Positions 1,354-36,212 of a stretch of 64,000 nt of DNA are shown here, in pieces. The notes beneath the pieces were generated by a model. The model did not search any database. It was not told where the DNA came from and was given only the letters and a program-made list of their open reading frames with translations. The stretch comes from Bacteroidales bacterium (lineage in GTDB: Bacteria; Bacteroidota; Bacteroidia; Bacteroidales; Bacteroidaceae): contig JAUNOO010000001.1 of assembly GCA_030531095.1 (NCBI GenBank), forward strand, positions 7,747 to 71,746. Direction: 5' to 3'. A program made the translations under genes and the position numbers. Numbering within the stretch: the stretch's first letter is position 1; each line of letters starts with the position of its first letter.

Positions 1354-4227
1354 ATGAGGAGATTTACTTACTCTTTCCTCTTGTCCTTGCTCTTGATTTT
1401 GGGTGGGGGCTTAGAAATTTCGGCACAAGTCTTTATACCACGGACGTCGACAAGTGGTGTCACCTACACCTACTACATTAAGAGTGCCGGTGAGAATCCT
1501 AACTATTATGTGTCCGCTGCGAATATGGAAAATGGCGGTGCAGTCACTTTGACAAGTGGAGACATGTCTGATGCTCAAGCATTCAAGCTGGTAGCGGGCG
1601 AAGAAGGAATGTTTGGTACTTATGTTTATATCTGTACTCCAGATGAATCTTACGTTGTGGATTGGTGGGGAGATGACTTTCCTGCATACTTCGATGCAGG
1701 TGGTCAGGTCTATGGCTGTGGTGCATGGTTCTGGACTATATCATATGGTAGTGAGCCTGAAACGATGAATGGTTGTGAACCTTACTTCCGCATAAGTTAT
1801 AGCACCGAAGAGGAGTATGAGGAATTGGGCCTGAATTGGTTTGTTTCTGACGGGAATGAATATTGCGGATTAGGGAGTAGTGCGGAAAAAAACTCCATCT
1901 GGAATTTCATTCCTGCCGACCTTAGCACCATGAAGAAGACGGCGGAAGACATCAAGGCCACTTTGAACCCGTATGCCGGGTTTGCGTATTCAGAGTCTTT
2001 CTCTAGCTCTAATGTTATTTCTGATTTGAAGTCACAAATTTCTGAAATAGAGAGCCTGTCGGAATATTCCTTGGAGAGTGCGAACAAGCTGCTGGCTGCC
2101 TATTCCACTTTTCTGACTTATGGTGATAGGTTTGTGAAAGATGATTCGTTCACAACGGGCTATTACAGAATTACGAATAAGGCTACTGACCGGTATCGCT
2201 ACCTATTCAATGATGATTTTTATGATAGCAATGACTATTTGTGTACCCTGCTGTCGAAAGAACCAGTAGAAACCAACAATGGTTATTGGTATGTAGAAGT
2301 TGACGGCAATACCCTGAATATAAAGAACGGACAAGGTAATGGTATCACAGAAGACAGAGACCTCATGATTTATTCTGCTCTTAATATCTATGAAGATGAA
2401 ATCGTTGATGGCTACTATTCTTTTGAAGAGGCTTTAAGTAGCAGCAAAGGTTATGGTCATTTTGTCGGTAGCTATTATTCCCTCACGACAAGTGAAAGCG
2501 CCGAGTCAAATTCGTCTGCGGAGAATCGCTGGGCCTTTGAAAAGATTGATGAAACTACTGTTTATAAGGTGGATGTGACAGGGTTGGAGGACAATTTTGG
2601 GCTGTACGTGACGTACACTCATGACGGTACGACCGAATACGCTTATTCCGGCGGCTTCTTTGTCTCTGCCGATGTGCCAGATGTCAGCAAAATGACAATT
2701 CCAGACCAGAATGGTTATGTCTCCGCTACGTTTACAGTGGAGGGACAGACGATTAAAGTCGAATATAAGAAGAAAGATATTAATGACATTTTGCCCCAAA
2801 TCGAAGAACCTTTGGCGATTGCTCAAAAGATGTTGCCAATCCGTGGTATAGGTTATCCGACTGAAGAAAGCGAAGCTTATTATTGGCTGAGTAATGCCGT
2901 TATTGATGCCACTTCCCTCACAGAGAATGATGACCCCACTAGGGCGGAATCGATTTTGAATGATCTAAACTCTGCAATCTCATATTACGCTACGACCGAC
3001 AACGGCATTCAGATGCCGGAGGATGGTAAGGCCTATACCTTTACGTTTGTGGCTTACGATGGTGCCCGCAGCTATATGTATTTTGATGTTGACGCTGACG
3101 AATATCAGTTGTCGAAGACGGAGGCTACCTCTAATGCGGATTATCCTATGACAGCTACCCTCATTTGTAGAGATTTGGGTAATAACGAGTATGCCTTTGT
3201 GAACAATTCTGGCAAGTACCTTATTTGGCGTTCGGGCGGTTCTTATTCAACTCAGGGTGGTAATGACAATAAGGGATATTCTGACACTTATATGTATACC
3301 GAAACAGAATATATATATGGCGCGACCTGGACTAACCATTATTATGCCTCGGTTACTTTGGGGAAATTGAGTAACAGCTTCGCTGGCGTAACTCCCCAGA
3401 ATGTGTCTGACTTGTTGGGTCTTATGACAATCGCAGGGGAAGGCAAACCCAATTTTGCCATCCAAGACGGGACGACTTATTACGGCGGCGGTCCATATTT
3501 CAATTCCGAATACTCCTCAGCTATATGTATTGAGGAAATAGATTATCCTAACAATGTGACTCTCATCTCTTTGGAGGGCGCGAACGACCAAACTCTGCAA
3601 AATTGGGGCTTTAATTACGTCGGCACATTCAGTGCGCCCTTTGATGCTTGGTTTGATGATAATGAGAATCCGGACGTGAGGGTATTCTATGTGTCCACTT
3701 TGGAGAATGAGGATGGTAAGACGACTGCGGTCTTGACGGATATTGAAAATGCCGCTCCGCTGTACTACTACGTACCAGCCAATACTGGTGTTATCTTGGC
3801 AAGTGCTTCAGAAGGGGCAGTGAGGATGCTTCCCTATACGAATGAATTTGAAGGAGAAGACCTCCCCACGACGATTGAAGGTAATCTGCTTGGCAATTCT
3901 GCGGGTGAAGCAAAAGTAATCGGCAGCGACAACACGAGCATTTACGTCCTTTCTAAGTATAACAACACTGTGGCATTCTTCCTTTCCGCTGCAGGCACGT
4001 TGCCGATGAACAAGGCCTACCTGGATAAGACGCTCGCAGGCGAAGGGTTCAATGCAGCGCAACTGTACCTGGGCTTTGGCGGTATGGTTGACGGCATTGA
4101 AAATGTGGAAACCACTGAGGCAGAAAGCGCCGAAGGCAAGGCAGTATTTGACCTCTCTGGTCGTCGCGTGACGAATGCCACGAAGGGCCTTTACATTGTG
4201 AATGGAAAGAAGGTTTACGTGAAGTGA
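1354..4227 (+). CDS. Large secreted protein with T9SS-like C-terminal domain, 957 aa
   Basis: Signal peptide (MRRFTYSFLLSLLLILGGGLEISAQ); C-terminus VFDLSGRRV...KGLYIVNGKKVYVK; acidic and Tyr-rich; no catalytic motif recognised. Confidence 0.85.
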   Translation: MRRFTYSFLLSLLLILGGGLEISAQVFIPRTSTSGVTYTYYIKSAGENPNYYVSAANMENGGAVTLTSGDMSDAQAFKLVAGEEGMFGTYVYICTPDESYVVDWWGDDFPAYFDAGGQVYGCGAWFWTISYGSEPETMNGCEPYFRISYSTEEEYEELGLNWFVSDGNEYCGLGSSAEKNSIWNFIPADLSTMKKTAEDIKATLNPYAGFAYSESFSSSNVISDLKSQISEIESLSEYSLESANKLLAAYSTFLTYGDRFVKDDSFTTGYYRITNKATDRYRYLFNDDFYDSNDYLCTLLSKEPVETNNGYWYVEVDGNTLNIKNGQGNGITEDRDLMIYSALNIYEDEIVDGYYSFEEALSSSKGYGHFVGSYYSLTTSESAESNSSAENRWAFEKIDETTVYKVDVTGLEDNFGLYVTYTHDGTTEYAYSGGFFVSADVPDVSKMTIPDQNGYVSATFTVEGQTIKVEYKKKDINDILPQIEEPLAIAQKMLPIRGIGYPTEESEAYYWLSNAVIDATSLTENDDPTRAESILNDLNSAISYYATTDNGIQMPEDGKAYTFTFVAYDGARSYMYFDVDADEYQLSKTEATSNADYPMTATLICRDLGNNEYAFVNNSGKYLIWRSGGSYSTQGGNDNKGYSDTYMYTETEYIYGATWTNHYYASVTLGKLSNSFAGVTPQNVSDLLGLMTIAGEGKPNFAIQDGTTYYGGGPYFNSEYSSAICIEEIDYPNNVTLISLEGANDQTLQNWGFNYVGTFSAPFDAWFDDNENPDVRVFYVSTLENEDGKTTAVLTDIENAAPLYYYVPANTGVILASASEGAVRMLPYTNEFEGEDLPTTIEGNLLGNSAGEAKVIGSDNTSIYVLSKYNNTVAFFLSAAGTLPMNKAYLDKTLAGEGFNAAQLYLGFGGMVDGIENVETTEAESAEGKAVFDLSGRRVTNATKGLYIVNGKKVYVK

Positions 4228-4262: not shown

Positions 4263-4430
4263 ATGAAGAAAAAATATATCACTCCCACGTCGGAGGTCAT
4301 CAATCTGTTGCCTGAGAAGATGCTGGCAATGTCAGTCTCTGATCAAAAAGTAGACCCTGCTACATCCTTCTCCAACCGCAAACAAGGTTGGAACAGTGAG
4401 GACTGGAGCGGCGGCGAGATAGAAGAATAA
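4263..4430 (+). CDS. Small YxxP-leader peptide A, 55 aa (MKKKYITPTSEVINLLPEKMLAMSVSDQKVDPATSFSNRKQGWNSEDWSGGEIEE)
   Basis: Start set at ATG 4263 by similarity to paralogs at 28904 and 32111; lies between secreted-protein gene and terminator. Confidence 0.85.
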   Translation: MKKKYITPTSEVINLLPEKMLAMSVSDQKVDPATSFSNRKQGWNSEDWSGGEIEE

Positions 4431-4457: not shown

Positions 4458-4505
4458 AGCGGGTGTGCGCCTTGAGAGCAGGGTGGCGCACCCGCTATTC
4501 TTTTG
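4458..4505 (+). terminator. Intrinsic terminator after peptide A
   Basis: AGCGGGTG(T)GCGCC...GGCGCACCCGCT stem followed by ATTCTTTT. Confidence 0.7.
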
Positions 4506-20320: not shown

Positions 20321-20332
20321 TAAATAGAAGAT

Positions 20333-20722: not shown

Positions 20723-20766
20723 CACATACATTTCACTGTAACGCATAAATATAATAGAAATAAAAT

Positions 20767-21375
20767 ATGGCTAGATATATTGGACCCAAGTCTCGTATTG
20801 CCCGCAGATTCGGGGAGGCGATTTTCGGTGCTGACAAAGTACTTTCCAAGCGCAACTTCCCTCCTGGTCAGCATGGTAACTCCCGTCGTCGCAAGACCTC
20901 TGAGTACGGTGTCATGTTGGCTGAAAAGCAGAAGGCAAAGTACACTTACGGTGTATTGGAGAAGCAGTTCCGCAATTTGTTCGAAAAGGCAGCCCGTTCC
21001 AACGGCATTACCGGTGAGTTGCTCCTCCAGGCACTCGAATGCCGTCTCGACAACGTCGTATATCGTCTTGGCATCGCCCCCACGCGTTCCGCAGCCCGTC
21101 AGCTTGTCAACCACAAGCACATCACGGTCGACGGCAAGGTAGTCAACATTGCTTCCTACAGCGTAAAGCCCGGCCAGATTGTTGCTGTCCGCGAACGCTC
21201 CAAGTCTCTCGAAGTCATTGCCGACGCACTGGCAGGATTCAACCACAGCAAGTATCCTTGGATTGAGTGGGACGAAAACGTGAAGGGGGGTAAGCTTCTG
21301 CACAAGCCCGAACGCGCCGACATCCCTGAGAACATCAAGGAGCAGCTGATTGTCGAGTTGTACTCTAAAAACTAA
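20767..21375 (+). CDS. rpsD: 30S ribosomal protein S4
   Basis: [19 protein letters not shown]. Confidence 0.99.
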
Positions 21376-21392
21376 TTAAAATACGATTATTC

Positions 21393-22418: not shown

Positions 22419-22426
22419 ACTGAAAA

Positions 22427-22960
22427 ATGAGACACAATAAGAAATTCAACCATCTGAGCCGTACTGCTTCTCACCGCGCAGCCATGCTTTCCAACATGGC
22501 CTGCTCCCTGATCAAGCACAAAAGAATCACTACGACTCTGGCAAAGGCCAAGGCACTCAAGAAGTACGTTGAGCCGCTCATCACGAAGAGCAAGAACGAC
22601 ACGACCAATTCCCGTCGTGTAGTCTTCAGCTATCTTCAGGACAAGTATGCAGTGACCGAGCTGTTCAAGGAAATCTCCGTCAAGGTCGCCGACCGTCCGG
22701 GTGGCTACACTCGTATCATCAAGACCGGCTTCCGTGCCAGCGACGCTGCCGAGATGTGCTTCATCGAGTTGGTAGACTACGATGAGAACATGGCAAAGAC
22801 GCAGAAGAAGGCTACGCGCACCCGTCGTTCCAAGAAGTCTGCCGCCGCTGAAGCTCCCGCAGCCGAAGCCGCAGCAGTTGAAACGACTGCCGCAGAAGCA
22901 CCTGCAGCAGAGGCTCCCGCAGCTGAAGCCACTGAGGCCGAAGCCCCCAAGGCTGAATAA
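22427..22960 (+). CDS. rplQ: 50S ribosomal protein L17 with Ala/Glu/Pro-rich tail
   Basis: [14 protein letters not shown]; C-terminal AEAPA repeats. Confidence 0.99.
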
Positions 22961-23316: not shown

Positions 23317-26103
23317 ATGACAAGAATATTTACTTTGACGAAAGCGTTGCTCGCGCTTTCCCTCTTTTGCATTGCGGGAATTGTGGGTGCAAATGCGCAG
23401 ACGACGGTCGTGTACGACTTCACCAAAGCCGATGCCGCCAGTGCGTTTGGCGCTACGGTAGCGACCGGAAGTTCGGGCTATCTGACGGTGAATCAAGCTT
23501 ATCACCATTCGTCAGACCCCATCGCCTTCACGCCGACCGATGCAGAAGGTGTAAGATTTTTCTGCAGCAACGCCAATTTATACACCCTGCGTGTCAATAA
23601 TGGTGGCGCGTTCACGGTCAGCGCGGACAAAGGCTACCTCATTACAAGAATCAGAGCGTACATTTCTAAGTATTGCAAGGCTTATCTTTGGGGCGATGAC
23701 CTGTTTCCTTCAAATTCTTGGGGTGGTAGCGAGACTAGTGTTTTATTGAGTAATACCTCTGGCGTCACCTGCATCATCGACAGTATGGCTATCACTTATC
23801 AGCCCGAGTCGACGAGCGGAAAGAATGCCGCCAAACTGGATTTCTCTACCTCGACAGTTTCTGTGATTTTCGGTGAGACTGAGACCTTCACTGAGCCTAC
23901 ACTGACCGGCGAATCTGACGGCGCGGTGAGCTACGCCAGTTCTGACGAATCGGTCGCTACCGTGGACGAGAACGGCAATGTGACCATCCTCGCTGTGGGT
24001 ACTACTGAAATCACCGCCACGTCGGCAGAGACTGACGACTACGACGCCGGCACAGCCTCCTACACCCTGACGGTGTGGCCGTTGTATGAATCGCTCTCTG
24101 CGCTGAAGGCGCAAATCGTCAGCGACGCCAGCAGCACGGCGAAGGACTACTACGTCAAGTTGACCGATGCCGTCGTGTCGTATGCCAATACCTTTGCGGG
24201 CTACATCGAAGAAGGCACGACGGGTCTTGCCCTCTATTACAGCGACCACGGACTGGAGACCGGCAATGTGCTCAACGGCACGGTGAAGGTGTCCGCGCTG
24301 GTCTATAGGGGCTTGGCAGAAATCACCAACATCGAAGCCGCCGCCGAACAGATTACTACTGGTGGCACGGTTCCCACCCTCGAAGTCTCCATTGCCGACC
24401 TCATTGCCAATCAAGACCTCTACGACTCGCGCCGCGTGAAGATTAGCAGCGCAGAGGTGACGAAGACCCTCTCCGCAAGTATTGCCTACGTGGCGAAGGA
24501 CGGCTCGAGCCTCAAAATCTTTTCGTCTGCCGACCTGAACAATTTCAGCAACGTCGGCAACGTGGTCGACGTTGAGGGCTTCCTTTATTATTACTATTAT
24601 CATGACGACGTGTGGGGTAGAACGGAGTCTGGTCTCCAGTTCCGCGTTTGGGAAGAGCCCACGCTGGTGGAAGGAAAGGTGTCTCCCCGCTTGTCCTTCA
24701 CCACCACTTCCTATTCGGTCAGCGTGAACGGCAGTTTTCCGAGGCCAGTGCTGAACAATCCCTACGGCGTCGAAGTGACCTACTCCAGCAGCAACGAGGC
24801 TGTGGCTACGGTGGACGCCAACACCGGTGCAGTGACCATAGTTGCTGCCGGCACAGCGACCATCACCGCCTCGTCTGTGGCGACCGACGACTACCGCGCC
24901 GGCAGTGCTTCCTATAAGCTGACCGTCGTGGACGCCGACCAGGCTTACTACTACAAGAAGGTGACGAGCCAGAGCGATATTGTGAATGCTGGTTCTTATC
25001 TGATTGTCAGTCCCGACAAAAACTACTTCCTCGGCGCAGCCAACTCGGAAAGCACCTACCGCACTGCGGTGAGCGCCTCAAAGTTTTGCACGCACCTGAC
25101 GGACGAACTCATGCTGGTGAACCAGAACAACGTTTCGGGCGCGCCCTATGAGGTGACTATGTGGTCAACCGGGGTATATGAAGGCAAGGACACCTACTGG
25201 CTCGAAGTTGTAACCACTGATGAGAGCACAGGAGGCAGTACTGTCGGCTATCTGGCCCATACCTCCACCGCCAATGACATCAGCGAGGTGGCGGAAGGTA
25301 ATTTTTATCCGACGATGCGGTGGGCAGTCACTTTTAACGAGGCGGACGGTACAGTGGATATAATGAACACCGTGCCCTATCAGTATAACGGTTCAGAGAA
25401 ATACGGCTATCTGCAGTTCAATCCAACCTCAAGCGTAAGGCGGTTTGCCACCTATACGGGAACGCAGCAGGCTCCCATTCTCTACCGCCGCGTCAATGTC
25501 GGCCTGATTAACGTCGTCACCGAAGAGGGCTATGCCACCTTCTACACCGACAAGAACTTCAGAATGCCTGCCGGCCTCACCGGCACCACCATCACGGGTG
25601 TGGACGCCAACGGCCAACTCATTGCCGACTGGGCGTACACCGAGGGAACGGAAGTGCCCGGCGGAACCGGATTGCTCCTCAAGGGCGAGAAGGGCAGCTA
25701 CTACTACGTCGTCCTCGACGAAGTGAGCGCCACTGCGCCCGATGACAACCTGCTGCACGGCTTCACCACCGCCCAGACGATTCCGGCTGACGACTCGAAG
25801 AACTTCTACAAGCTGACTTACTCGGACGACGACCACGTCATCGGCTTCTACTGGGGCGCGCAGGATGGCGGACCCTTCTATTGCTCCGCCTACAAGTCCT
25901 ATCTGGCTCTGCCCAAAACGGCGGAAACCGCACTCGCCAACGGCTACTCCTTCGACCGCACCGTCACGTCCATTGCCGACGTGCGTCAGTCGCAGCCCGA
26001 CGCCGCTGTCTACAGCCTGACGGGCGTGCGCCTCGATGAAAACGTAGAGAGCCTGCCCAAGGGCTTCTATATCGTGGGCGGAAAGAAGGTAATTGTAAAG
26101 TAA
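23317..26103 (+). CDS. Secreted Ig-like (Big_2) repeat protein with T9SS-like tail, paralog 1
   Basis: Start moved to ATG 23317 (MTRIFTLTKALLALSLFCIAGIVGANA, matches paralog signal peptides); two SS(D/N)ExVATVD Big_2-like motifs; tail KGFYIVGGKKVIVK. Confidence 0.85.
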   Translation: MTRIFTLTKALLALSLFCIAGIVGANAQTTVVYDFTKADAASAFGATVATGSSGYLTVNQAYHHSSDPIAFTPTDAEGVRFFCSNANLYTLRVNNGGAFTVSADKGYLITRIRAYISKYCKAYLWGDDLFPSNSWGGSETSVLLSNTSGVTCIIDSMAITYQPESTSGKNAAKLDFSTSTVSVIFGETETFTEPTLTGESDGAVSYASSDESVATVDENGNVTILAVGTTEITATSAETDDYDAGTASYTLTVWPLYESLSALKAQIVSDASSTAKDYYVKLTDAVVSYANTFAGYIEEGTTGLALYYSDHGLETGNVLNGTVKVSALVYRGLAEITNIEAAAEQITTGGTVPTLEVSIADLIANQDLYDSRRVKISSAEVTKTLSASIAYVAKDGSSLKIFSSADLNNFSNVGNVVDVEGFLYYYYYHDDVWGRTESGLQFRVWEEPTLVEGKVSPRLSFTTTSYSVSVNGSFPRPVLNNPYGVEVTYSSSNEAVATVDANTGAVTIVAAGTATITASSVATDDYRAGSASYKLTVVDADQAYYYKKVTSQSDIVNAGSYLIVSPDKNYFLGAANSESTYRTAVSASKFCTHLTDELMLVNQNNVSGAPYEVTMWSTGVYEGKDTYWLEVVTTDESTGGSTVGYLAHTSTANDISEVAEGNFYPTMRWAVTFNEADGTVDIMNTVPYQYNGSEKYGYLQFNPTSSVRRFATYTGTQQAPILYRRVNVGLINVVTEEGYATFYTDKNFRMPAGLTGTTITGVDANGQLIADWAYTEGTEVPGGTGLLLKGEKGSYYYVVLDEVSATAPDDNLLHGFTTAQTIPADDSKNFYKLTYSDDDHVIGFYWGAQDGGPFYCSAYKSYLALPKTAETALANGYSFDRTVTSIADVRQSQPDAAVYSLTGVRLDENVESLPKGFYIVGGKKVIVK

Positions 26104-26126: not shown

Positions 26127-28883
26127 ATGAAAAGAATAACTACTTCAGCAAAGGCGTTGCTCGCGCTTTTCCTCTTGTGTGTTGGAGGGATTGCGGGAGC
26201 GAACGCGGAGACTGCAACTTTCAGTTTTAACGAACCTCTCTTCATCTCTGAGACGATGAAACTGGATCCACCGCCTTCGGGTGGTGGTACGGAGATTGGA
26301 ACTTCTGCTTATACTGTAGATAATGTTTCAATGAGTGCAACAAATGGTACAACAGCCACAAGACTGTGGTGCGACAACACCTCCGGTACGTATCATTTGA
26401 GAGTTTACGAAAATGGAACTTTAACCTTTAGCACCCCAGATGGGTACGAGATTACAAAAATAGAGTGTACGTTCACTGGCAATTATGCCTCAAGATTTAG
26501 TGCAGATTGTGGCACGTGGACAAGCGGAACAACATCTGGCACTTGGGAGGGACAGTCTCCTTCTGTGACGTTTACAGCTTCAGCTCAAGCCCGTTTGTTG
26601 ACAGTCACAGTCACGTATCAAAAAGGTCTTCGCAATCCCAACCTTAGCTTCTCGACCACAGCATTTACGATTTGTAAATACGATGATATCACAGCTCCCA
26701 CGCTGAATTATGCTACTGGCTTTGACGGCACCGTGACGTATTCCAGCGACAATGAAGATGTGGCATATGTTGATAATGAAGGCGAAGTGTATATTGGAGT
26801 CAGCACTGGCACAGCGACCATCACGGCGCAGTCTGCGGCAACCGATAATTTCTACGCGGGCTCGGCTTCTTATACCATTACCGTCCTTCCGTACTTCTCT
26901 GGTGGTCTGGCCGAACTGAAGGCACAAATTATCGAAGACGCCGGCGCGGCAGAATATTACGTCTATCTGTCTTCTACCGTCGTCACCTATGTGAATGATG
27001 CCTATGCCTACCTTGAGGATCTGGATAAAGGGATCGGTCTGGTCTACTATAAGGAAGACGGCGACCACGTTTTGGAAGCTGGCGATAGACTGATCGACAA
27101 AGTGAAAGTCTCCACCATGGTCTATAACGGCTTGGCAGAAATCACCAGTCTCGAATTCACGGAAGAAGGCCAGATATACCTTAAGAACGCCGATGTCCCC
27201 GTTACGGGGGCAACCATTGCCCAACTGAACGCCAGTCCGGACACCTACGACTCGCGCCGCGTGAAAATTATCGGCGCAACGGTGACGACGCCCCAATCGG
27301 AAGAGAGCAATGAGGCCGTGCTGACGCTGGGAGGCTCGACCATCAAGGCGTATTCCACTCTTCCCTTGGACCATCTTTCTACTGCCGGCAACGTAGTCGA
27401 CGTCATTGGTTATCTTTACACCTACGGCACGGAACTCTACTTCCGCGTATGGGAAGACCCCACGGGTAAGACCAATCCCGCCCTGTCCTTCTCTGCCACC
27501 ACGGCTACGGTCAATAATGGCGATACCTTCACGGCGCCCGAACTGACCAATCCAAACAGCATGACGGTGACTTACAGCAGCAGCAATGAGGCTGTGGCTA
27601 CGGTCGATGCCTCCACTGGCGAGGTGACTATCGTTGGTATCGGTACGACGGTCATCACCGCCTCGTCTGAAGCGACCGATGATTATCTTGCAGGCGAAGC
27701 CTCTTACACGCTGACGGTCGTAGACCCCAATGGAGTTTACTACTACAAGAAAGTGACGCGCCAGGACGACATCGTGGCTGGTGGCGTTTATCTGATTGCA
27801 AGCCCTGACGTAGACTACTTTGCTGGTGCGCAGTCGACTACGTCTACCAAGTATCGCACGATAGTGGACGCCACAACAGCAAGCACAACCCTCATGGGCG
27901 GTCTGCTGCAAATCAGCCAGACTGGAGTCAATGCTACGGGCATGCCCTATGAGGTGACTCTGGTGGAAAGCGAGACGGCGGGTGAATACAAACTTCAGAT
28001 TCTTGGTAGCGATGGCACAACCGCCTATCTGGTTCATAATTCTTCCAGCAATGACGTAAAAGAAGATGACTCTTCTGACGCGGACGGCAGTTTGTGGAAA
28101 CTTACTTACGACGAGACGAAAGGTACTGTTTCTGTGCAGAACACGACGCAGTATGCAAAGAGCGGCACATTGAGTGACTGGTATCTTCAGTACAATTCGA
28201 ACAAAAATCAACAGAGATTTGCCACCTATACGAATTCTATGAAAGACCCCGTCCTCTACCGCCGCGTCGAGGCTGGTCAGCTGACCATCGTCGCCGAAGA
28301 GGGCTACGCCACCTACTTCACCGACAAGAACTTTGAAATGCCAGTAGGTGTTACCGGTACGACCATCACGGGCGTGGACAATGGCAACCTGAACGCCGCT
28401 TGGGGATACACTGAGGGCGCTGAAGTTCCTGCTGAAACCGCGCTGCTCGTCAAGGGCACGCCGGGCACTTACTACTACGCCATTCTCGACAACGTGACTG
28501 CCACAAAGCCCGAAGGCAATCTGCTGAACGGCTACACTACCGATACCCCAATTACGGCGGACGACACGAAGAACTTCTACAAGCTGACTTATTCTAACGA
28601 CGGCAGTGCGTTCGGCTTCTACTGGGGCGCAGAAAACGGCGGTGCCTTCACTTGCAAAGCCAACAAGGCTTACTTGGAACTGGACAAAACGCAGAGCGCG
28701 CAGGCCAACGGATTCTCCTTCGGCGACAACGGCGAAATCACCTCTATCACAGGCGTGAAGCAGTCGCAGTCTGCCGCCGACGCAGCAGTCTATAGCCTGA
28801 AGGGCGTCCGTCTCAATGGCAACCTCGACAGCCAGACGAAGGGCCTCTACATCGTGAACGGAAAGAAAGTATTGGTAAAGTAA
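26127..28883 (+). CDS. Secreted Ig-like repeat protein with T9SS-like tail, paralog 2
   Basis: Signal peptide, same domain order as paralogs 1 and 3; tail KGLYIVNGKKVLVK. Confidence 0.87.
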   Translation: MKRITTSAKALLALFLLCVGGIAGANAETATFSFNEPLFISETMKLDPPPSGGGTEIGTSAYTVDNVSMSATNGTTATRLWCDNTSGTYHLRVYENGTLTFSTPDGYEITKIECTFTGNYASRFSADCGTWTSGTTSGTWEGQSPSVTFTASAQARLLTVTVTYQKGLRNPNLSFSTTAFTICKYDDITAPTLNYATGFDGTVTYSSDNEDVAYVDNEGEVYIGVSTGTATITAQSAATDNFYAGSASYTITVLPYFSGGLAELKAQIIEDAGAAEYYVYLSSTVVTYVNDAYAYLEDLDKGIGLVYYKEDGDHVLEAGDRLIDKVKVSTMVYNGLAEITSLEFTEEGQIYLKNADVPVTGATIAQLNASPDTYDSRRVKIIGATVTTPQSEESNEAVLTLGGSTIKAYSTLPLDHLSTAGNVVDVIGYLYTYGTELYFRVWEDPTGKTNPALSFSATTATVNNGDTFTAPELTNPNSMTVTYSSSNEAVATVDASTGEVTIVGIGTTVITASSEATDDYLAGEASYTLTVVDPNGVYYYKKVTRQDDIVAGGVYLIASPDVDYFAGAQSTTSTKYRTIVDATTASTTLMGGLLQISQTGVNATGMPYEVTLVESETAGEYKLQILGSDGTTAYLVHNSSSNDVKEDDSSDADGSLWKLTYDETKGTVSVQNTTQYAKSGTLSDWYLQYNSNKNQQRFATYTNSMKDPVLYRRVEAGQLTIVAEEGYATYFTDKNFEMPVGVTGTTITGVDNGNLNAAWGYTEGAEVPAETALLVKGTPGTYYYAILDNVTATKPEGNLLNGYTTDTPITADDTKNFYKLTYSNDGSAFGFYWGAENGGAFTCKANKAYLELDKTQSAQANGFSFGDNGEITSITGVKQSQSAADAAVYSLKGVRLNGNLDSQTKGLYIVNGKKVLVK

Positions 28884-29131
28884 TAACGGAAAGGAAATTC
28901 ATCATGAAAGCATACATCAAACCTACCAGCGAAATCATCAACCTCACTCCCGAAAACATGTTGGCCAAATCTGGTCCATCGGTCTACGACGAGTCTTCCA
29001 ATGGCGACATGTACAGCAACAAAAAAGGCTGGGACAGCTCCCAGTGGATCAACGAGGAAGAATAATAGCACTCTGTCTTCAGAGTAATCCGTAAATGCGA
29101 CGGGCGTACCGAACAAAACCGGTGCGCCCGT
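28713..29131 (+). repeat. ~420-bp direct repeat (CTD + peptide gene + terminator), copy 1
   Basis: Near-identical to 31920-32345 except in peptide middle. Confidence 0.9.
28904..29065 (+). CDS. Small YxxP-leader peptide B, 53 aa (MKAYIKPTSEIINLTPENMLAKSGPSVYDESSNGDMYSNKKGWDSSQWINEEE)
   Basis: Hand translation; not in ORF track; paralog of 4263 and 32111. Confidence 0.85.
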   Translation: MKAYIKPTSEIINLTPENMLAKSGPSVYDESSNGDMYSNKKGWDSSQWINEEE

Positions 29132-29196
29132 CTTTTTGTGTAGTCCACAGATTAGGCGAAGCACGCGACCCCGCAGCGTGTTTCGCCTTTCTTTTA
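29099..29196 (+). terminator. Two tandem intrinsic terminators
   Basis: GACGGGCGTACCG/CGGTGCGCCCGTC + T5; AGGCGAAGCACGC/GCGTGTTTCGCCT + TTCTTTT. Confidence 0.75.
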
Positions 29197-29229
29197 CTTA
29201 TTTGTAGCACGATTGTGATAAGCCCTCTC

Positions 29230-29237
29230 TAATTTTG
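29230..29237 (+). promoter_or_regulatory. -7 promoter element (TAATTTTG) for paralog 3
   Basis: TAnnTTTG match after terminators, upstream of ATG 29346. Confidence 0.55.
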
Positions 29238-29345
29238 CAGGCGAAAACTAGACCGACCGCGCCCCGCATTGGTGCCGCCCTCGTCCGGAAAACAAAAGAT
29301 GGCAAGCTAAGAAAATATCACCAACAATAATCAAATTCTGATGAA

Positions 29346-32090
29346 ATGAAAAAGTTTACAACTTCAATGAGGACGCTGCTCGCCCTTTTCCTCTTGTGTA
29401 TTGGAGGGATTGCGGGAGTGAGTGCAGAGACGGCTACTTTTAGCTTTAGCGATTTGAACTTCATCACTGGGACGATGGGTGTAACAGAATCTGAAGCGAG
29501 CGGTTTTAACATTGGGACTAACACCTATACTGTGGGTGAGGTCACAATGAGTGCAACAGATGGTGACACACCTACGAGACTATGGGTTACCAGTGGGAAG
29601 TATCATTTGAGAATATACAACAATGGTGGAACTATAACCTTTGGTGCCTCTGAAGGGTACGAGATTACAAAAATAGAGTGTAGTTTTAGAATTAGTAATA
29701 ATGGCGCATCTAAACTAACTGCAAATGTTGGCACTTGGTCTGGAGGAACAACTACTGGCACTTGGACGGGTTCATCCTCTTCTGTGACCTTTACCGCTGC
29801 CACAGGTACTGCTCAAATGTTGACGGCGACTATCACGTACGCCGCAACGTCTGGACTGCCAAAGCCTGAACATAATTTCTCTGAAACTGAGTTTACACTT
29901 AAGCAAGGTGAGACAACTTTCACGGCTCCCACGCTGACTTCTGCTACTGACTTTGACGGCACAGTGACGTATTTCAGTGACAATGAAGATGTAGCAACGG
30001 TCAATTCCTCCACTGGTGAAGTGACTATAAAAGGTGGAGCAGGTACGGCGACCATCACTGCACACTCTGCTGAAACCGCCAACTTCGCCGAGGGGTCGGC
30101 TTCTTATACGATTACGGTCATTCCTGTCTTCTCTTCTCTCGCAGCACTGAAGTCTCAAATCACTGCTGCCAGTAGCACCGCCTACGTCACGTTGACCGAT
30201 GCTGTTGTGACCTATGTAAATGGTTCTTACGCCTATATTGAGGAAGGTGAGACCGGTCTTGTCTACTATAACCGCAGTCACGGTATGGAGGCTGGCAACG
30301 TGTTGAACGGCACGATGAAAGTTACCACTACTATCTATTATGGTTTGGATGAAATCACCAGTCTTGATGCCTCTGAGGGCACGATTACCACTGGCGGCAC
30401 TATCTCTACAACGACGGCAACCATAGCCGAACTGAATGCCAGTCCGAGCACCTACGATTCCCGCCGCGTGAAGATTAGTGGTGCTACGGTGACGACGGTC
30501 CAATCTGGCACTTCGGCTACGTTGTCGCAAGGTGATGCGACTCTCGCGCTGTATTTAGGCAGCAACACCTTCAAAGCTCTTGGCACTGTGGGCAACACCG
30601 TCGACGTCATCGGCTACCTCTATTACTATAACTCAGAGCTCCAGTTCCGCGTATGGGAAGAGCCCACGTTGGTAAGTGGAAAGGTTGACCCCAATCTGTC
30701 TTTCTCCGCCACCACTGCGACTGCCAATTTGGGCGAGAGCTTCACTGCTCCGACGCTGAGCAATCCCAACGGCGTGACGGTGACCTACAGTAGCAGCAAT
30801 ACGGCTGTGGCTACGGTGAATGCCAACACTGGCGCGGTGACTATAAATGCCGCTGGTACAACGACTATCACTGCCTCCTTTGACGGAGATGAAAGTTACA
30901 ACGCCGGCGATGCTTCTTATACGCTGACGGTTGTAGACCCCAATAAGGTTTACTACTACAAGAAAGTGACGCGCCAGAGCGACATTGTGGACGGTGGCGT
31001 TTATCTGATTGCAAGCCCCAATTCCGATTACTTTGCTGGTGCGCAGTCAACTACGAACACCAAGTATCGCACGGTAGTGGACGCTTCTACTGTCGGCACG
31101 ACCCTCACTGGCGGCCTGTTGCAGATTAACCAGTCCGCAGTCAACGTCTCCGGCGTACCCTATGAGGTGACTTTGGTTGAAAGTTCGACGACGGGTGAAT
31201 ACGCACTTCAGATTTTGGGCAGCGAGGGTACAGAGGCCTATCTGGTTCATAATTCCTCCAGCAATGACGTCACAGAAGGTGAATCTTCTGACGCAGAGGG
31301 CGGTCTCTGGACGCTCACCTACAATGAGAACGGCACAGTAAACATAGAGAATAATTTGACCTATACTTATAACAAAGTGGAAGGTTCTGTCGGTCATCTG
31401 CGATTCAATTCAAGTGCAGAGCGCTTTGCGACCTATACGACGCAGCAAGACCCCGTCCTCTACCGCCGCGTCGAGGTTGGCCAGCTGACCATCGGCACCG
31501 AAGAGGGTTACGCCACCTACTTCACCGACCAGAACTTTGAAATGCCTGCAGGTGTCACCGGTACGACCATCACGGGTGTGGACGCAGAAGGCAACCTGAC
31601 TGCCGCTTGGGAATACACTGAGGGCGCTGAAGTTCCTGCCAACACTGCGCTGCTCGTCAAGGGCGATAAGGGCACTTACTACTACGCCATTCTCGACGAC
31701 GTGAGCGCCACGACGCCCGAAGACAATCTGTTGAACGGCTACACCACCGCCACCCAGATTCCTGTGGACAATACGAAGTGCTTCTACAAGCTGACCTATT
31801 CTGACGACGACCACGTTCTCGGCTTCTACTGGGGCGAAGAAAATGGCGGTTCATTCCTCTGCTCTGCCAACAAGGCCTACCTTTCGCTGACCAGAGCGCA
31901 GAACGCCCACGCCAAGGGCTTCTCCTTCGGCGACAACGGCGAAATCACTTCCATCACTGGCGTGAAACAGTCGCAGTCTGCCGCCGACGCAGCAGTCTAC
32001 AGCCTGAAGGGCGTCCGTCTCAATGGCAACCTCGACAGCCAGACGAAGGGCCTCTACATCGTGAACGGAAAGAAAGTATTGGTAAAGTAA
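29346..32090 (+). CDS. Secreted Ig-like repeat protein with T9SS-like tail, paralog 3
   Basis: Signal peptide, Big_2-like motifs; final ~55 aa identical to paralog 2. Confidence 0.87.
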   Translation: MKKFTTSMRTLLALFLLCIGGIAGVSAETATFSFSDLNFITGTMGVTESEASGFNIGTNTYTVGEVTMSATDGDTPTRLWVTSGKYHLRIYNNGGTITFGASEGYEITKIECSFRISNNGASKLTANVGTWSGGTTTGTWTGSSSSVTFTAATGTAQMLTATITYAATSGLPKPEHNFSETEFTLKQGETTFTAPTLTSATDFDGTVTYFSDNEDVATVNSSTGEVTIKGGAGTATITAHSAETANFAEGSASYTITVIPVFSSLAALKSQITAASSTAYVTLTDAVVTYVNGSYAYIEEGETGLVYYNRSHGMEAGNVLNGTMKVTTTIYYGLDEITSLDASEGTITTGGTISTTTATIAELNASPSTYDSRRVKISGATVTTVQSGTSATLSQGDATLALYLGSNTFKALGTVGNTVDVIGYLYYYNSELQFRVWEEPTLVSGKVDPNLSFSATTATANLGESFTAPTLSNPNGVTVTYSSSNTAVATVNANTGAVTINAAGTTTITASFDGDESYNAGDASYTLTVVDPNKVYYYKKVTRQSDIVDGGVYLIASPNSDYFAGAQSTTNTKYRTVVDASTVGTTLTGGLLQINQSAVNVSGVPYEVTLVESSTTGEYALQILGSEGTEAYLVHNSSSNDVTEGESSDAEGGLWTLTYNENGTVNIENNLTYTYNKVEGSVGHLRFNSSAERFATYTTQQDPVLYRRVEVGQLTIGTEEGYATYFTDQNFEMPAGVTGTTITGVDAEGNLTAAWEYTEGAEVPANTALLVKGDKGTYYYAILDDVSATTPEDNLLNGYTTATQIPVDNTKCFYKLTYSDDDHVLGFYWGEENGGSFLCSANKAYLSLTRAQNAHAKGFSFGDNGEITSITGVKQSQSAADAAVYSLKGVRLNGNLDSQTKGLYIVNGKKVLVK

Positions 32091-32345
32091 TAACGGAAAG
32101 GAAATTCATCATGAAAGCATACATCAAACCTACCAGCGAAATCATCAACCTCATCCCCGAAAACATGTTGGCTAAATCTGGCGATACCCCTCAGCCCAAC
32201 GACGAGTATTCCGGGAACGACATGTACAGCAACAAAAAAGGCTGGGACAGCTCCCAGTGGAGCAACGAGGAAGAATAATAGCACTCTGTCTTCAGAGTAA
32301 TTCGTAAATGCGACGGGCGTACCGAACAAAAAACGGTGCGCCCGT
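31920..32345 (+). repeat. ~420-bp direct repeat, copy 2
   Basis: Near-identical to 28713-29131. Confidence 0.9.
32111..32278 (+). CDS. Small YxxP-leader peptide C, 55 aa (MKAYIKPTSEIINLIPENMLAKSGDTPQPNDEYSGNDMYSNKKGWDSSQWSNEEE)
   Basis: Hand translation; not in ORF track; the indel versus peptide B is in frame. Confidence 0.85.
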   Translation: MKAYIKPTSEIINLIPENMLAKSGDTPQPNDEYSGNDMYSNKKGWDSSQWSNEEE

Positions 32346-32350
32346 TTTCT
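32312..32350 (+). terminator. Intrinsic terminator after peptide C
   Basis: ACGGGCGTACCG/CGGTGCGCCCGT + TTTCT. Confidence 0.7.
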
Positions 32351-32801: not shown

Positions 32802-35800
32802 ATGAGGAAAATGTACAAATCCTTATTGTTGTTCCTGTTTGCAGTGGCGGGTAGTGTGAGTCTAAACGCTCAGGTCAGCTACTATGCAATCGAGGGAGAC
32901 GCTGTGACCGAGGTAGAGCCGGAAACAGATTATGCGTTGAAGAATGCCATTGTGGCGAGTTCGGATGCCTATGTGACGGGGACTTCTGTGTCTACCATGC
33001 TCACGGAGGACAACGCTTACCAGTTTGAGGAGTTCGGTACAGACGATGAAGGCTATACTGTCTATCGTCTGAAGAAGACTACGACTGGTGAGTACCTTGA
33101 AGACCCGGACATCAGTGGTGGTACCATCGCCATGACGACCATTCCCGGTCGTGCCTTCAAGTTCACCGTCTTCACGGCTGTGGTTCACGACACAGTAAGT
33201 ACTGAATATCTGCAGAATCCGGATGTCGAAATACGCAGCTTCCTTTACAACACGACAGTGAGCGATGTTCTGCCTGTGGTGCTTTGTAATGTCAACTATG
33301 CCAACAGCTCCTACTACTGGCTGACCAGTACGTCGAGCGGTGGTTTCAGCTGGACCCAGACGGCAGCCAATACGGGCTGGATTGTCTATGGCATTGGCGT
33401 GGCTAATGGTTATACCAACCTGTTCAGCGTAATTCAGGAATACTTCAATGAGAAGGCGCCTGCCGACTTGTTCACCGTTGGTACCTCGTTCGGCAACGTC
33501 AGCCAGGAACTGTTCGATGCCCTGGATAGTGCCTACGACAGCGCTATCGCCCTTCTTAACAATACCACATCTGTCACCGACGAGCAATTCCAGGCTGCAG
33601 CCGATAACCTCTACAACGCCTACTGCGATGCTGGTGCAGGCGTCATCGGTCTCGACGAAGGCTACTACATCATCCGCAACGGCGCCAGCGACCGCGGTAA
33701 CGGCAACGCCCTCGTCTACGATACGGGCTCTGTGCTCTATTGGGTTGAATATGCCTACACCGACAGCGCAACCTTCGACTCCAACCACGCCGACTGTATC
33801 TGGGAAATGACCAGAGCACGCGGTACTGTGGGCGGTTACTACATCCGCAACTACAAGACGGGCCGCTACATGGGTTCGCAGGCCACCACGGGTGTGGCCG
33901 TGCCCACGACAGAAGGCCCCGACCAGGTTTGGTATCTGAAGATTCAGACTGGTACTGCCTATAATATCTACACCACCAACCAGAACTCCGTTCGTCCGTG
34001 TCTGCACGGCGGTAGTGGTACTCCGCTCGTAGTGGTTTGGGGTTGGTATGCAACCGCTTCCGGTTGGTACTTCCAGTCTATCTCGCAGGAAGAACTTGAC
34101 AACATGGTTCCTGGCGGCGGTGACAGTGGCGAAGTTGAGGAAGACACTCTCACTCAGGCTGAGCTCAATGACTCTGCTACTGTACTTATTGAAACGGCTG
34201 AACCTGCGCTCACGCAGGGCATCGCCATCGTTTCTGAAGCCACCGAGGACGGCGACATGACGAGCGCAGGTCTCGTGACCGACGGCTCTTGCTTCTTCTC
34301 GAACGCTGTTGAAACAACGGAAGGCTCGCTCGATTATCTTATCGATAACGACCAGACTACCTTCTTCCACTCCAAATGGAGCGCTGTTACCGACCCCACC
34401 GACCTCATCCACAATGTGGGTGCCGACCTCGGCAAGGAAGTGCAATATCTCCACATCAAGTACTCCCGTCGTAACACGGGTTCTGCTGGTACGCCGCTGA
34501 CAGTCCGTGTTTATGCTTGCAACGACACGACCGACGCAGCCAACTGGGTAGAGCAGGGTGTCTACACCTTCTCCTACACCTATACATCCACGACCTATAG
34601 TTCTGAAACTGAAAACTTCACCGGTCTCACCGGCGTGGCTCTGGATGCCCCCTACCGCTTTATCCGCCTCGACGTGGAACACACGCTCAACGATGCTACT
34701 TCCAGCGTGGGCAACCTCTACTTCGTATTCAGCGAACTCCGCTTCTATGAAGGTACCTATGACGCCGACAACTCCCTCATCGAGGTTGTACCCGACGAGG
34801 TGATTGCCGAACTCAAGACTCAGATTGCTGCAACCAAGGCCGAACTGGCTGAAGAACTCGTGACCGAGACCACGCTCGCTGCCCTCCAGGCTGCTTATGA
34901 CGCCTTCGTAGCGGCTTATCCCGATGTTGAATCTGTGAACGAACTCTACGCAGAGTGCCAGGAATACCTTGATGGTGCAATGGAAGGCGCTGATATTGGT
35001 TATTACGAAGAAGGCAGTGTGACGGCCTTTGAAACAGCCCTCACCGCTGTTGCTGCCGACATCAAGAGCGTGATGAGCGTGTCTGAGATTAGCAGTTGCA
35101 TTACCAGAATGAATGAGGCCCTCGCTGCCCTCAAGGCTGCCCTCATCCTGCCCACTGGTGGTGAAGTATATTACATCCGCAGTGCATCGACCGGTACGCC
35201 TGCTTCCAACTACATCTACGCTCAGAACACTGACGAAAGTGTAGCGAAGTGGGGTGGCGCTAGTGCCCTGTCTATTGAAACGCGTCTCAACTATATGTGG
35301 AGAGTCATCGACAATAGCGACGGCACCTTCAGCCTGCAGAACTTGGGAACGGGTATGTATCTCGGCAACCCCGGAGTGAACAACTCTGACGTCTACATGT
35401 CTTACGAAGCCGACACCGTATCCTTCAAGTCTTCTAAGTTGGCTGGTATTATCAACATCGTATTTGCCGACGGCATCTATGCTAACTTGCAGACCGGCTC
35501 CTATGACGTGGTTTCTTGGGGCTCTGCCAGCGGTACTGACAACTCGGCGTTCGAATTCGTTGAGGTTGACAATTCTTGGGATGGTTCTTACCACTATGAC
35601 ATCGACCAGAAGATTCAGGTTGTCACCCTGCCTATCGACATTACGGTACTCCCGATGGACGCTGACTTCTACAAGGTTTATGGCAAGACTTCTACCTCTG
35701 CTGAAGACGGCACTATCGAGCTGACCATGTATGCAGAGAATGAAGAAATTCCTGCCGGTACACCGTTCGTTTACGTGCCTTACGAAGATGCTACTGAAGG

Positions 35801-36212
35801 CGCTACCGACTTCATCTGTACAGCTACCTCGTTCGACGAACTCGAATACGACCTGACGCCTAAGACCGACAACGGCCTCGTGGGTGTATTCCAGGAGCAG
35901 AGTGTTGGTAACGGCATGGGCCTTATCTTCAACGGCTTCGTGACCCTCTCGATTTCTACTGACGTTGTAGCAGCCGGTTCCGGTTACTTCAACGAGTCAG
36001 TGCCTACCGTAGAAACCAGCGGCGACTACTCGCTCCCGCTCTACGGTGTCATCAGCGACATCAGCACCGTTAAGGTAGCCGACGCTGAGAAGGTTAACGT
36101 CTACACCCTCTCTGGTATCAAGGTACGTGAGGGCGTGAAGGCTGCAACCGCTACCTCCGGTCTGCCGAAGGGCATCTACATCGTAGGTGGTAAGAAGATG
36201 TACGCCAAGTAA
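32802..36212 (+). CDS. Large acidic secreted protein with F5/8 type C (discoidin)-like domain and T9SS-like tail, 1136 aa
   Basis: Signal peptide; LIDNDQTTFFHSKW...YRFIRL...FSELRFY; helical bundles; tail VYTLSG...KGIYIVGGKK. Confidence 0.82.
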   Translation: MRKMYKSLLLFLFAVAGSVSLNAQVSYYAIEGDAVTEVEPETDYALKNAIVASSDAYVTGTSVSTMLTEDNAYQFEEFGTDDEGYTVYRLKKTTTGEYLEDPDISGGTIAMTTIPGRAFKFTVFTAVVHDTVSTEYLQNPDVEIRSFLYNTTVSDVLPVVLCNVNYANSSYYWLTSTSSGGFSWTQTAANTGWIVYGIGVANGYTNLFSVIQEYFNEKAPADLFTVGTSFGNVSQELFDALDSAYDSAIALLNNTTSVTDEQFQAAADNLYNAYCDAGAGVIGLDEGYYIIRNGASDRGNGNALVYDTGSVLYWVEYAYTDSATFDSNHADCIWEMTRARGTVGGYYIRNYKTGRYMGSQATTGVAVPTTEGPDQVWYLKIQTGTAYNIYTTNQNSVRPCLHGGSGTPLVVVWGWYATASGWYFQSISQEELDNMVPGGGDSGEVEEDTLTQAELNDSATVLIETAEPALTQGIAIVSEATEDGDMTSAGLVTDGSCFFSNAVETTEGSLDYLIDNDQTTFFHSKWSAVTDPTDLIHNVGADLGKEVQYLHIKYSRRNTGSAGTPLTVRVYACNDTTDAANWVEQGVYTFSYTYTSTTYSSETENFTGLTGVALDAPYRFIRLDVEHTLNDATSSVGNLYFVFSELRFYEGTYDADNSLIEVVPDEVIAELKTQIAATKAELAEELVTETTLAALQAAYDAFVAAYPDVESVNELYAECQEYLDGAMEGADIGYYEEGSVTAFETALTAVAADIKSVMSVSEISSCITRMNEALAALKAALILPTGGEVYYIRSASTGTPASNYIYAQNTDESVAKWGGASALSIETRLNYMWRVIDNSDGTFSLQNLGTGMYLGNPGVNNSDVYMSYEADTVSFKSSKLAGIINIVFADGIYANLQTGSYDVVSWGSASGTDNSAFEFVEVDNSWDGSYHYDIDQKIQVVTLPIDITVLPMDADFYKVYGKTSTSAEDGTIELTMYAENEEIPAGTPFVYVPYEDATEGATDFICTATSFDELEYDLTPKTDNGLVGVFQEQSVGNGMGLIFNGFVTLSISTDVVAAGSGYFNESVPTVETSGDYSLPLYGVISDISTVKVADAEKVNVYTLSGIKVREGVKAATATSGLPKGIYIVGGKKMYAK

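Follow-up and report, generated by a model that had tools for sequence, protein, structure and literature searches.

Small peptides encoded behind domain-X surface proteins of Prevotella-group Bacteroidales and their likeness to precursors of linear polyphosphorylated peptides

The small open reading frames that follow secreted-protein genes in the window analysed here (the whole stretch of 64,000 nucleotides of Bacteroidales contig JAUNOO010000001.1) belong to a large unnamed peptide family of the Prevotella group, located almost solely behind one unnamed domain, termed domain X. Judged from sequence, the maturation gene set of relatives corresponds to the one known for linear polyphosphorylated peptides (LPP), namely lppA-K-B-S-D-N from Paenibacillus alginolyticus (Popov et al., Nat Commun 2026; PMC13381572), here with dispersed precursors linked to cargo genes. 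On balance we lean, with restraint, towards LPP-type precursors that are processed in trans, the core then acting on domain X of the cargo. The features concerned are listed below.

1354..4227, + strand: cargo 3, 957 aa, lacking Big_2; short T9SS-type tail preceded by domain X (3556-4077)
4263..4430, + strand: candidate precursor peptide 3, 55 aa from the ATG at 4263; Ser codon 4332
about 4458..4496, + strand: strong hairpin with a weaker T-run, likely terminator, after peptide 4263
23317..26103, + strand: further cargo with domain X (928 aa counted from the first ATG), 23 nt ahead of cargo 1; own peptide absent
26127..28883, + strand: cargo 1, 918 aa; signal-like hydrophobic N-terminus, two Big_2, domain X, short T9SS-type tail
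28269..28721, + strand: domain X of cargo 1, about 145-150 aa, predicted beta-rich, just before the tail
28904..29065, + strand: candidate precursor peptide 1, 53 aa; YxxP leader, conserved E, A-x-S, Ser codon 28970
29099..29132, + strand: terminator-like hairpin with T-run, after peptide 28904
29346..32090, + strand: cargo 2 of 914 aa, in tandem with its paralogue cargo 1; domain X spans 31473-31928
32111..32278, + strand: candidate precursor peptide 2, 55 aa; Ser codon 32177
about 32313..32345, + strand: 12-bp hairpin with short T-run, likely terminator, after peptide 32111

The small ORFs are genuine genes under purifying selection. Those at 28904 and 32111 begin, as originally described, 20 nt past the stop codons of cargos 1 and 2; the third homologue is real, but is spaced 35 nt, not 20, behind its cargo. 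The terminator expected after each peptide is represented by a T-run hairpin in the first case and by hairpins with weaker T-runs in the other two, of which 32313-32345 is absent from the list of the terminator scan and 4458-4496 lay outside its range. Comparison of the three sequences reproduced the shared motifs that had been reported, and a Sec signal is absent from the peptides. The core of the first peptide is acidic and ends in an SNKK-W-4x-W tail. An Ig-repeat protein had been placed upstream, a description that fits cargo 1 through its Big_2 domains but not cargo 3, which lacks a Big_2 match. The domain-X cargo at 23317..26103 is likely to be on one transcript with peptide 28904. No family was matched when Pfam and NCBIfam were searched with the peptides. 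Selection on the conserved motifs, the lack of which had been named as a possible refuter, was estimated from seven pairs: dN/dS was 0.19 for the leader, 0.52 for the middle and 0.44 for the tail, and the leader is thus under purifying selection.

In the organism's own genome, a model of 143 sequences found 11 family ORFs and none among shuffled ORFs. All 11 follow, at a distance of 16-53 nt, a gene whose product ends in a Prevotella-type T9SS tail, against a chance expectation of about 0.13% of positions falling within 110 nt behind such a gene, so that the placement is not due to chance. The same adjacency, proposed for scoring in the original prediction, was observed at 28 of 28 peptide loci fetched from relatives. 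The family is present in 96 of 150 family genomes with up to 19 precursors (about 20) scattered per genome, and it comprises at least 852 small-protein clusters that lack annotation; a search of the atlas with the peptide gave unnamed clusters only. Members are 50-65 aa long, with the leader pattern YIxPxSExIxLxxExMLAxS and a core with a Trp tail. Across the 143 members, the leader Y and P are invariant and E is present in 86%; a Ser lies 18-21 residues past the leader Y in 137, and the last two Trp are spaced 5 apart in 127. Several precursors are placed before pilin-like lipoproteins and not behind tail cargo, the type of partner varying by genus. A word-indexed homologue search with three query sequences returned only 4 proteins. 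Long forms numbered only two, P0072 and P0098, among the best 150 profile matches; the first of these, considered as a natural fusion, proved on inspection to be a repeat protein matched by chance.

The partner is more narrowly defined than the dedicated T9SS-cargo partner first suggested. The tail gene upstream was found throughout, but what distinguishes the partnered cargos is domain X, which occurs in 11 of 11 of them versus 7 of 36 unpartnered ones in the own genome (8 of the 11 lay outside the domain-X model). Moreover, of 35 upstream genes at loci outside the model, 33 encode domain X (32 of 34 minus one duplicate), a count that leaves aside 9 further rows with no qualifying upstream ORF. 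S26 or ABC genes are present in 89 of 92 domain-X genomes. Seven domain-X cargos of the own genome are without an adjoining peptide. Domain X is not the sole partner, since 16 peptide-positive genomes are without it and the pilin-like lipoprotein contexts exist. Domain X matched no Pfam family and no PDB sequence. For models of domain X with the tail (pLDDT 74) and of the secreted protein of the operon described below (pLDDT 90), the PDB yielded no match reaching Z >= 5 or E <= 0.001; these missing fold matches are evidence for neither novelty nor function. Regarding export, the tails of the three cargos received no score in the TIGR04183 search, and a T9SS route is therefore suggested by the C-terminal motif together with an iterated local tail model, which matches all three and also finds 32802-36212, a weak TIGR04183 match. 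The resemblance of YxxP to the YPNP motif prompted the idea that the peptide supplies the missing strands of the short tail. It was rejected: the peptide has no profile match to short tails, no peptide accompanies short tails that lack domain X, and longer-tailed cargos of genome G093 do have one.

The candidate maturation machinery is found in relatives, which carry a stand-alone kinase/S26-peptidase/RRE operon, a dedicated ABC exporter and a nucleotidyltransferase. The operon also encodes an extra secreted protein and is carried by cultured Segatella bryantii DSM 11371, Prevotella veroralis DSM 19559 and Alloprevotella tannerae ATCC 51259, among others. Co-occurrence with an RRE had been recommended for checking: 22 of 24 relatives from the same genus encode one in trans (PF05402 above cut-off), within the kinase and S26 operon. 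The RRE profile matches the structures 6jx3 (E 5e-7), 9x90 (E 0.0015) and 9x8z (LppB; E 0.017). In the S26 peptidase, S35, H75 and D90 are invariant in 15 sequences from relatives and the Ser aligns with the catalytic Ser of SpsB, the TIGR02228 match being below cut-off. The kinase, with a P-loop GxSGTGKSTH and a DD invariant in 16 sequences and with HprK_rel_A/B matches far under the NCBIfam cut-offs, adjoins S26 in 80 of 80 genus loci; the nucleotidyltransferase and the exporter are usually located away from this operon in the genus. A co-fold of RRE and peptide, for genome G017 only, scored 0.37 against 0.01 for the best control and lends weak support, with runs agreeing in at least 96% of contacts and a partner pLDDT of 50-51. 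Among calibration pairs, 116 of 157 solved ones and 2 of 215 mismatched ones attained the co-fold mark, but at scores of 0.60 or less only 18 solved pairs and both mismatches did; given this calibration and existing structures of lasso RREs with leaders, the pass may reflect structures already known to the folding model.

Across the same 150 genomes, the peptide occurs in 96, S26 in 118 and the ABC exporter orthologue in 111. Peptide and S26 are found together in 93 of the 96 peptide-positive genomes and neither in 29, while S26 and ABC are found jointly in 110 and neither in 31, co-occurrence statistics that are overstated because the genomes are related. The trans-matured RiPP that the original prediction allowed for is supported by this distribution and by the operon. 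Three peptide-positive genomes are without S26, and 25 genomes have S26 and no peptide match at E <= 0.001. Genome G011 holds all the enzymes and has no peptide match at E <= 0.1; its S26 gene, at first taken as lost together with the peptides, was instead relocated beside the ABC exporter, and with its enzymes complete this genome counts against the link between machinery and peptide. In genus g20 the combination of peptide, S26, ABC and domain X is confined to G093 out of 9 genomes, and in genus g21 only G044 of 3 has peptide, S26 and ABC. In other genera, family peptides lie in or beside RRE/S26/ABC/kinase/nucleotidyltransferase clusters (L049, L115, L117, L121, L122, L125, L129, L242). Searches of the organism's own assembly found RRE, kinase, S26, nucleotidyltransferase and dedicated ABC exporter all absent; the assembly has a completeness of 68.7%, and 10 of the 11 housekeeping neighbours probed (e.g. 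purH, murA, pyrG, yidC) are missing from it as well, so that this gap is uninformative. The presence of the machinery in the organism itself is thus a prediction from its relatives.

In the proposed process, the RRE would bind the YxxP leader, the HprK-like kinase would phosphorylate the conserved Ser past the leader, the Ser-His-Asp S26 peptidase would cut the leader, and the ABC half-transporter would export the core. By analogy with LPP biochemistry, these four steps are very probable. The cut may follow E-x, matching the register of LPP E-2/T-1 with Ser at +5, or fall between L and A, giving an A-x-S start with Ser at +3 as in LppA. A cut after A-x-S had been suggested by the signal-peptidase -3/-1 rule. 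That candidate was dropped, LppA being cut before A-Q-S and phosphorylated on that Ser (PMC13381572). Subsequently, the acidic Trp-tailed core would meet the Sec-exported cargo in the periplasm and act on domain X of the co-transcribed cargo. Its role as a partner in folding, secretion or display, argued from genetics, is fairly probable. Both options of the original prediction, a cargo partner or a trans-matured RiPP, gain support and are best combined.

Other readings share part of this evidence. Maturation might be of LPP type and the product act alone as a signal or a biofilm/capsule peptide, merely sharing the cargo promoter. Bacillota LPP clusters do lie in capsule loci, with no surface-protein partner named in the main text of PMC13381572; moreover, the core middle is variable and partners differ across genera. 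However, promoter sharing alone would not select one domain, and in the own genome the peptide follows 11 of 18 tail proteins with domain X and 0 of 29 lacking it, while domain-X and peptide copy numbers track each other (Spearman 0.69, n = 108). We consider this reading unlikely. Still less likely is further decoration of the phosphorylated core by NTP_transf_5 (PF14907) into a glyco-tether that joins the cargo to surface polysaccharide. NTP_transf_5 is present in 5 of 5 genus genomes and stands with RRE and kinase inside Wza/Wzc loci, PsmN is associated with pseudomycoidin glycosylation (PMC7533575), and the final LPP product is stated to be unknown (PMC13381572); against this, the gene occurs in 0 of 80 genus S26 loci, apart from the core operon, and deletion of lppN caused no change in a heterologous host (PMC13381572).

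A peptide that stays unmodified and serves the cargo as chaperone or strand donor in the cytoplasm or periplasm, the enzymes being unrelated, would fit the tight link to domain X, the own assembly without machinery, and the zero peptides found within the fetched flanks (7 kb) of 80 genus-type S26 operons. It is nonetheless very improbable: peptides without a Sec signal need an export route, co-occurrence with S26 and ABC is strict, other genera cluster the genes in cis, the leader is LPP-like with a conserved Ser, and profile similarity between peptide and tail is absent. Lasso or triceptide precursors, suggested by the YxxP motif and by lasso B1 proteins as nearest solved relatives of the RRE, have hardly any probability left. 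The lasso reading was rejected as the B2 protease (PF13471) occurs in 0 of 5 near-complete genomes and just 3 of 143 members carry Thr at the lasso position -2; in addition, no cyclase was noticed at the machinery loci, Asn_synthase matching proteins of about 565-620 aa elsewhere. Triceptides are defined by a radical SAM/SPASM maturase and an aromatic-X-X core motif. The earlier hint at them gained no support, given the Trp spacing of 5 and no radical SAM gene noticed on inspection of the Bacteroidaceae machinery loci; a related cluster in G208 has one.

If LPP-type precursors processed in trans do act on domain X, this would be the first function for LPP, a class described in 2026 solely from bacilli, with domain X as a specific target. 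It would also give a role to the at least 852 small-protein clusters, a common unnamed domain and a conserved unannotated operon. In a bacterial group that is dominant in gut, rumen and mouth, a single machinery seems to act on as many as about 20 precursors, each tied genetically to a surface protein via domain X. This points to an accessory step in the biogenesis of Bacteroidales surface proteins that was not found in the literature searched. More tentatively, gut and oral Prevotellaceae may possess a second, ABC-dependent lane that gives each domain-X protein a custom phosphopeptide, a RiPP pathway serving as an obligate accessory of secretion or display, possibly as a phospho-glycan tether, and this may be the role of LPPs.

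The original prediction knew of no described system with this layout. For the cargo-linked arrangement this stands, as it is absent from PMC13381572 and peptides of this kind were not described in the literature searched (excluding subscription journals and bioRxiv supplements); it does not stand for the maturation set, which matches LPP (PMC13381572). In PMC12710340 and PMC7470986, term searches turned up no passage on Bacteroidales, a kinase or S24/S26, and the passages obtained from PMC10352776 treat other clusters. According to PMC13381572, LPP are restricted to Bacillota with 1-3 precursors per cluster and their biological role is unknown; its dataset includes 5 Bacteroidota peptidases with precursors given as 'ND'. 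Both systems have a discrete RRE, an archaeal-type Ser-His-Asp signal peptidase (LppS requires the triad; PMC13381572), an HprK-like kinase, an NTP transferase plus an exporter resembling MsbA, along with a capsule-locus link and no cyclase. The precursors likewise share a YxxP leader, E before the cut region, Ser just after it and a variable core. Compared with the LPP consensus YxxPxVLxHQxIxFETxxS (PMC13381572), the leader here keeps YxxP, hydrophobic-x-x-E and Ser without HQ, F and T, and the spacing from Y to S is 19-21 instead of 18. Whereas the LPP precursor lies in or next to its cluster, this arrangement was observed here in other genera only; the peptides are dispersed, each of them following a domain-X cargo or preceding a pilin-like lipoprotein, while the machinery genes are distributed among several loci and the operon encodes an additional secreted protein. 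The phosphorylated lasso clusters of paeninodin and pseudomycoidin similarly combine RRE, HprK-like kinase, nucleotidyltransferase and ABC exporter (PMC7533575, PMC13381572), but need the B2 cysteine protease and a macrolactam cyclase. In Tannerella forsythia, potempin/KLIKK-peptidase pairs also dedicate a small co-transcribed gene to one secreted protein (PMC9890683); potempins, however, are upstream-encoded beta-barrel lipoproteins of 98-132 aa that inhibit proteases, in contrast to the signal-less peptides of 50-65 aa encoded here downstream of varied cargos. PCATs couple leader removal to ABC export by means of a C39 cysteine peptidase and double-glycine leaders (PMC10885120), a coupling that is paralleled here by an S26 serine peptidase with an RRE and, in L129, by the fusion of S26 peptidase and ABC exporter.

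The arrangement put forward in the original prediction, in which a small peptide gene with a YxxP leader and Trp tail directly follows the gene for a secreted protein (the cargo), is confirmed, and three such ORFs with the motifs claimed for them are present. The features concerned are:

1354-4227, cargo gene 3
4263-4430, peptide ORF behind cargo gene 3
4849-22960, ordinary ribosomal-protein cluster (S12, S7, EF-G onwards to L17, by translations), separating two groups of surface-protein genes
23317-26103, domain-X protein gene without a peptide, 23 nt upstream of cargo gene 1
26127-28883, cargo gene 1
28904-29065, peptide ORF behind cargo gene 1
29346-32090, cargo gene 2
32111-32278, peptide ORF behind cargo gene 2
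32802-36212, tail-bearing secreted ricin-type/F5-8/FIVAR protein, peptide absent, weak domain-X score
36379-37923, tail-bearing secreted PI-PLC-X-like protein, peptide absent

The predicted 20-nt spacing to the upstream stop codon was found for the ORFs at 28904 and 32111, but is 35 nt for that at 4263. A strong hairpin lies 3' of each peptide, as anticipated, and little or no structure is predicted in the three spacers. Each cargo begins with a signal-like stretch and ends in a short tail typical of secreted proteins of the Prevotella group. Since this tail falls short of TIGR04183, export by the T9SS is presumed. The Ig repeats ascribed to the cargos are missing from that at 1354-4227, which had no such Pfam hit.

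The small ORFs are genuine genes. An iterated six-frame profile search, as suggested earlier, recovered 11 full members in the bacterium's own 1.96-Mb assembly and none among shuffled control ORFs. Purifying selection is evident: seven non-overlapping close pairs among 39 sequences gave dN/dS values of 0.19 (leader), 0.52 (middle) and 0.44 (tail). An A at -3 of the start, found in 31 of these 39, fits Bacteroidota translation initiation, of which it is a feature. The three peptides had no match in Pfam or NCBIfam, and 16 homologues were unmatched in NCBIfam save for one weak hit. At least 852 clusters (50% identity) were obtained by profile search; among 10 cluster members looked up, the sole named one is an Alloprevotella hypothetical protein. 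The first family model was positive in 18/24 same-genus genomes and 0/16 genomes of other families, and a 143-sequence model detected the peptide in 96 of 150 family genomes and 24 of 27 genera. Furthermore, a leaderless remnant of a peptide tail (L009:567-656, on G000:C15) is a near copy of the tail of the C41 member in another context, and at L072:1500-2520 (genome G008) a second family peptide lies about 800 nt past the first without its own cargo gene.

The probable partner of the peptide is an unnamed region of about 145 aa ahead of the tail (domain X), and not the tail itself. All 11 of the assembly's peptides lie 16-53 nt behind a gene with the tail, and the same layout was observed in 28/28 relatives' loci fetched in one set. 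T9SS cargo in general, as first proposed, is nevertheless too broad a partner, as a peptide accompanies only 11 of 47 tail genes. Domain X is common to 11/11 partnered tail proteins and occurs in 7/36 unpartnered ones, including that at 23317-26103. At loci outside model building it was present in 33/35 upstream genes (32/34 minus one duplicate); nine further rows without a qualifying upstream ORF were contig edges, a tandem second peptide, or peptides preceding lipoprotein genes. Of the 150 genomes, 92 carry domain X, and 80 of these also have the peptide; the copy numbers of the two correlate at 0.69. It has no Pfam family, and neither solved relatives by sequence nor a clear fold match were found. 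In the tandem pair of cargo genes 1 and 2 with their peptides, a single case, DNA identity is 96-97% for tail and leader and 82-83% for domain X and core. Separately, in three unlike cargos (L001, L002 and L007, on G000:C47, C13 and C139) the tail is near-identical and the peptide behind it, 46 nt away, begins in a similar way, which suggests that tail and leader move or are homogenised as one module.

In same-genus relatives the maturation machinery is encoded in trans. RRE, NTase, kinase, S26 peptidase and dedicated exporter were all not found in the own assembly; this says little, since the assembly is 68.7% complete and 10/11 probed neighbouring genes are likewise missing. In the co-occurrence check proposed earlier, the RRE was present in 22/24 same-genus genomes. 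There, an operon comprises a secreted protein, an HprK-like kinase, an S24/S26 peptidase and the RRE. Exactly this order was observed in 72 of 80 named loci (kinase in 80, secreted protein in 79, RRE in 78), with a precursor nearby in none. The peptidase lacks an N-terminal membrane anchor and its Ser, His and Asp are invariant; it also occurs on two plasmid-collection records, NC_022111.1 and OY725995.1 (H1, H2), from a Prevotella and a Phocaeicola. The protein of about 140 aa with a signal-like N-terminus that heads the operon in 79/80 loci (L046:6691-7110 and homologues, alignment A11) gave a confident alpha/beta model (pLDDT 90) with conserved G-F-x-x-S-F-N-D-S and R-x-x-Y-S-x-Q, and neither a Pfam hit nor a PDB fold match; it is a candidate periplasmic carrier.

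In other genera, clusters of the machinery genes also contain an NTP_transf_5 enzyme and an ABC half-transporter, together with family peptides that adjoin lipoproteins, some pilin-like. At L129:7722-9770, an S26 peptidase-ABC exporter fusion of 683 aa, the S26 counterpart of C39 peptidase-containing transporters, lies close to an RRE, a lipoprotein and a family peptide. Polysaccharide loci with Wza/Wzc and a sugar transferase (L049:295-8510, L242:2-9994, L116, L244) harbour RRE, NTP_transf_5 and kinase, and a family peptide immediately ahead of a large lipoprotein. In L238:5462-11576 (G208) and L239:5386-11471 (G265), from the same phylum, RRE, kinase, S26 and ABC exporter lie upstream of a small ORF whose leader reads YxxP...E..L and whose core is rich in Cys and Arg; L238 additionally holds a radical SAM/SPASM gene. 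These two clusters resemble SynChlorMet cassette models, yet score under their cut-offs. Among the 96 peptide-positive genomes, the peptidase was found in 93 and the exporter in 90; both are present in 110 of the 150 genomes and both absent in 31, P values for co-occurrence being overstated since the genomes are kin. Within genus g20 (nine genomes), all four of peptide, peptidase, exporter and domain X occur in G093 and none of them in the other eight. Conversely, 25 peptidase-positive genomes gave no peptide hit; some contain divergent precursors, and in one, G011, there was no peptide at E<=0.1. The peptidase subfamily occurred in 6/200 genomes drawn phylum-wide. Co-folding of RRE and peptide from one genome gave weak support (0.37 against 0.01 for the best control), to which the already solved lasso RRE-leader structures may have contributed.

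Cargo and peptide are likely cotranscribed. Sec would take the cargo across the inner membrane, and very probably the RRE binds the peptide, the Ser behind the leader is phosphorylated, the S26 peptidase cleaves, either after E-x, by homology with linear polyphosphorylated peptides (LPP), or at L|A, and the ABC transporter then exports the peptide. Given such maturation and export, the genetics make it somewhat more likely than not that the acidic core of 33-37 residues, bearing a Trp-4x-Trp tail, binds domain X and serves as the cargo's partner in folding, secretion or display. Other partners exist as well, because some precursors are lipoprotein-linked. A peptide that acts freely is unlikely, and a phospho-glycan tether slightly more so; an unmodified chaperone is improbable. 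A lasso or triceptide product is scarcely credible: lasso peptides are ruled out by a missing B2 protease (0/5 genomes) and by a Thr at -2 in only 3/143 members. The earlier interpretation is partly supported: maturation in trans and a dedicated partner both gain ground, the lasso reading falls, and the partner narrows to domain-X cargo.

No account of the cargo-linked precursors or of domain X turned up in the literature searched. The potempins are analogous in layout only. The closest comparison is with LPP (lppA-K-B-S-D-N, Paenibacillus alginolyticus), where, according to the main text, Ser3 of the LppA core is phosphorylated, cleavage follows T-1 and requires the RRE plus S29, H68 and D93, and changes at F-3, E-2, T-1 and L-10 lower it (PMC13381572). 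That text states the class to be restricted to Bacillota, with function and final product not established, and contains no mention of Bacteroidales or of surface or secreted proteins; its dataset holds five Bacteroidota peptidases, precursors not determined, two of which (about 745 aa) run on into a long membrane-protein part (PMC13381572). In the Prevotella-group family, YxxP is kept in 143/143, L/I/F/M then E in 86%, and a Ser 18-21 residues past Y in 137/143, preceded by Ala at -2 in 92/137 and L/I/M at -3 in 131/137. In contrast, HQ, F and T of the LPP leader are missing and the precursors are dispersed, and for these two reasons the family is not filed as an LPP member, although by its sequence features it would operate like LPP.
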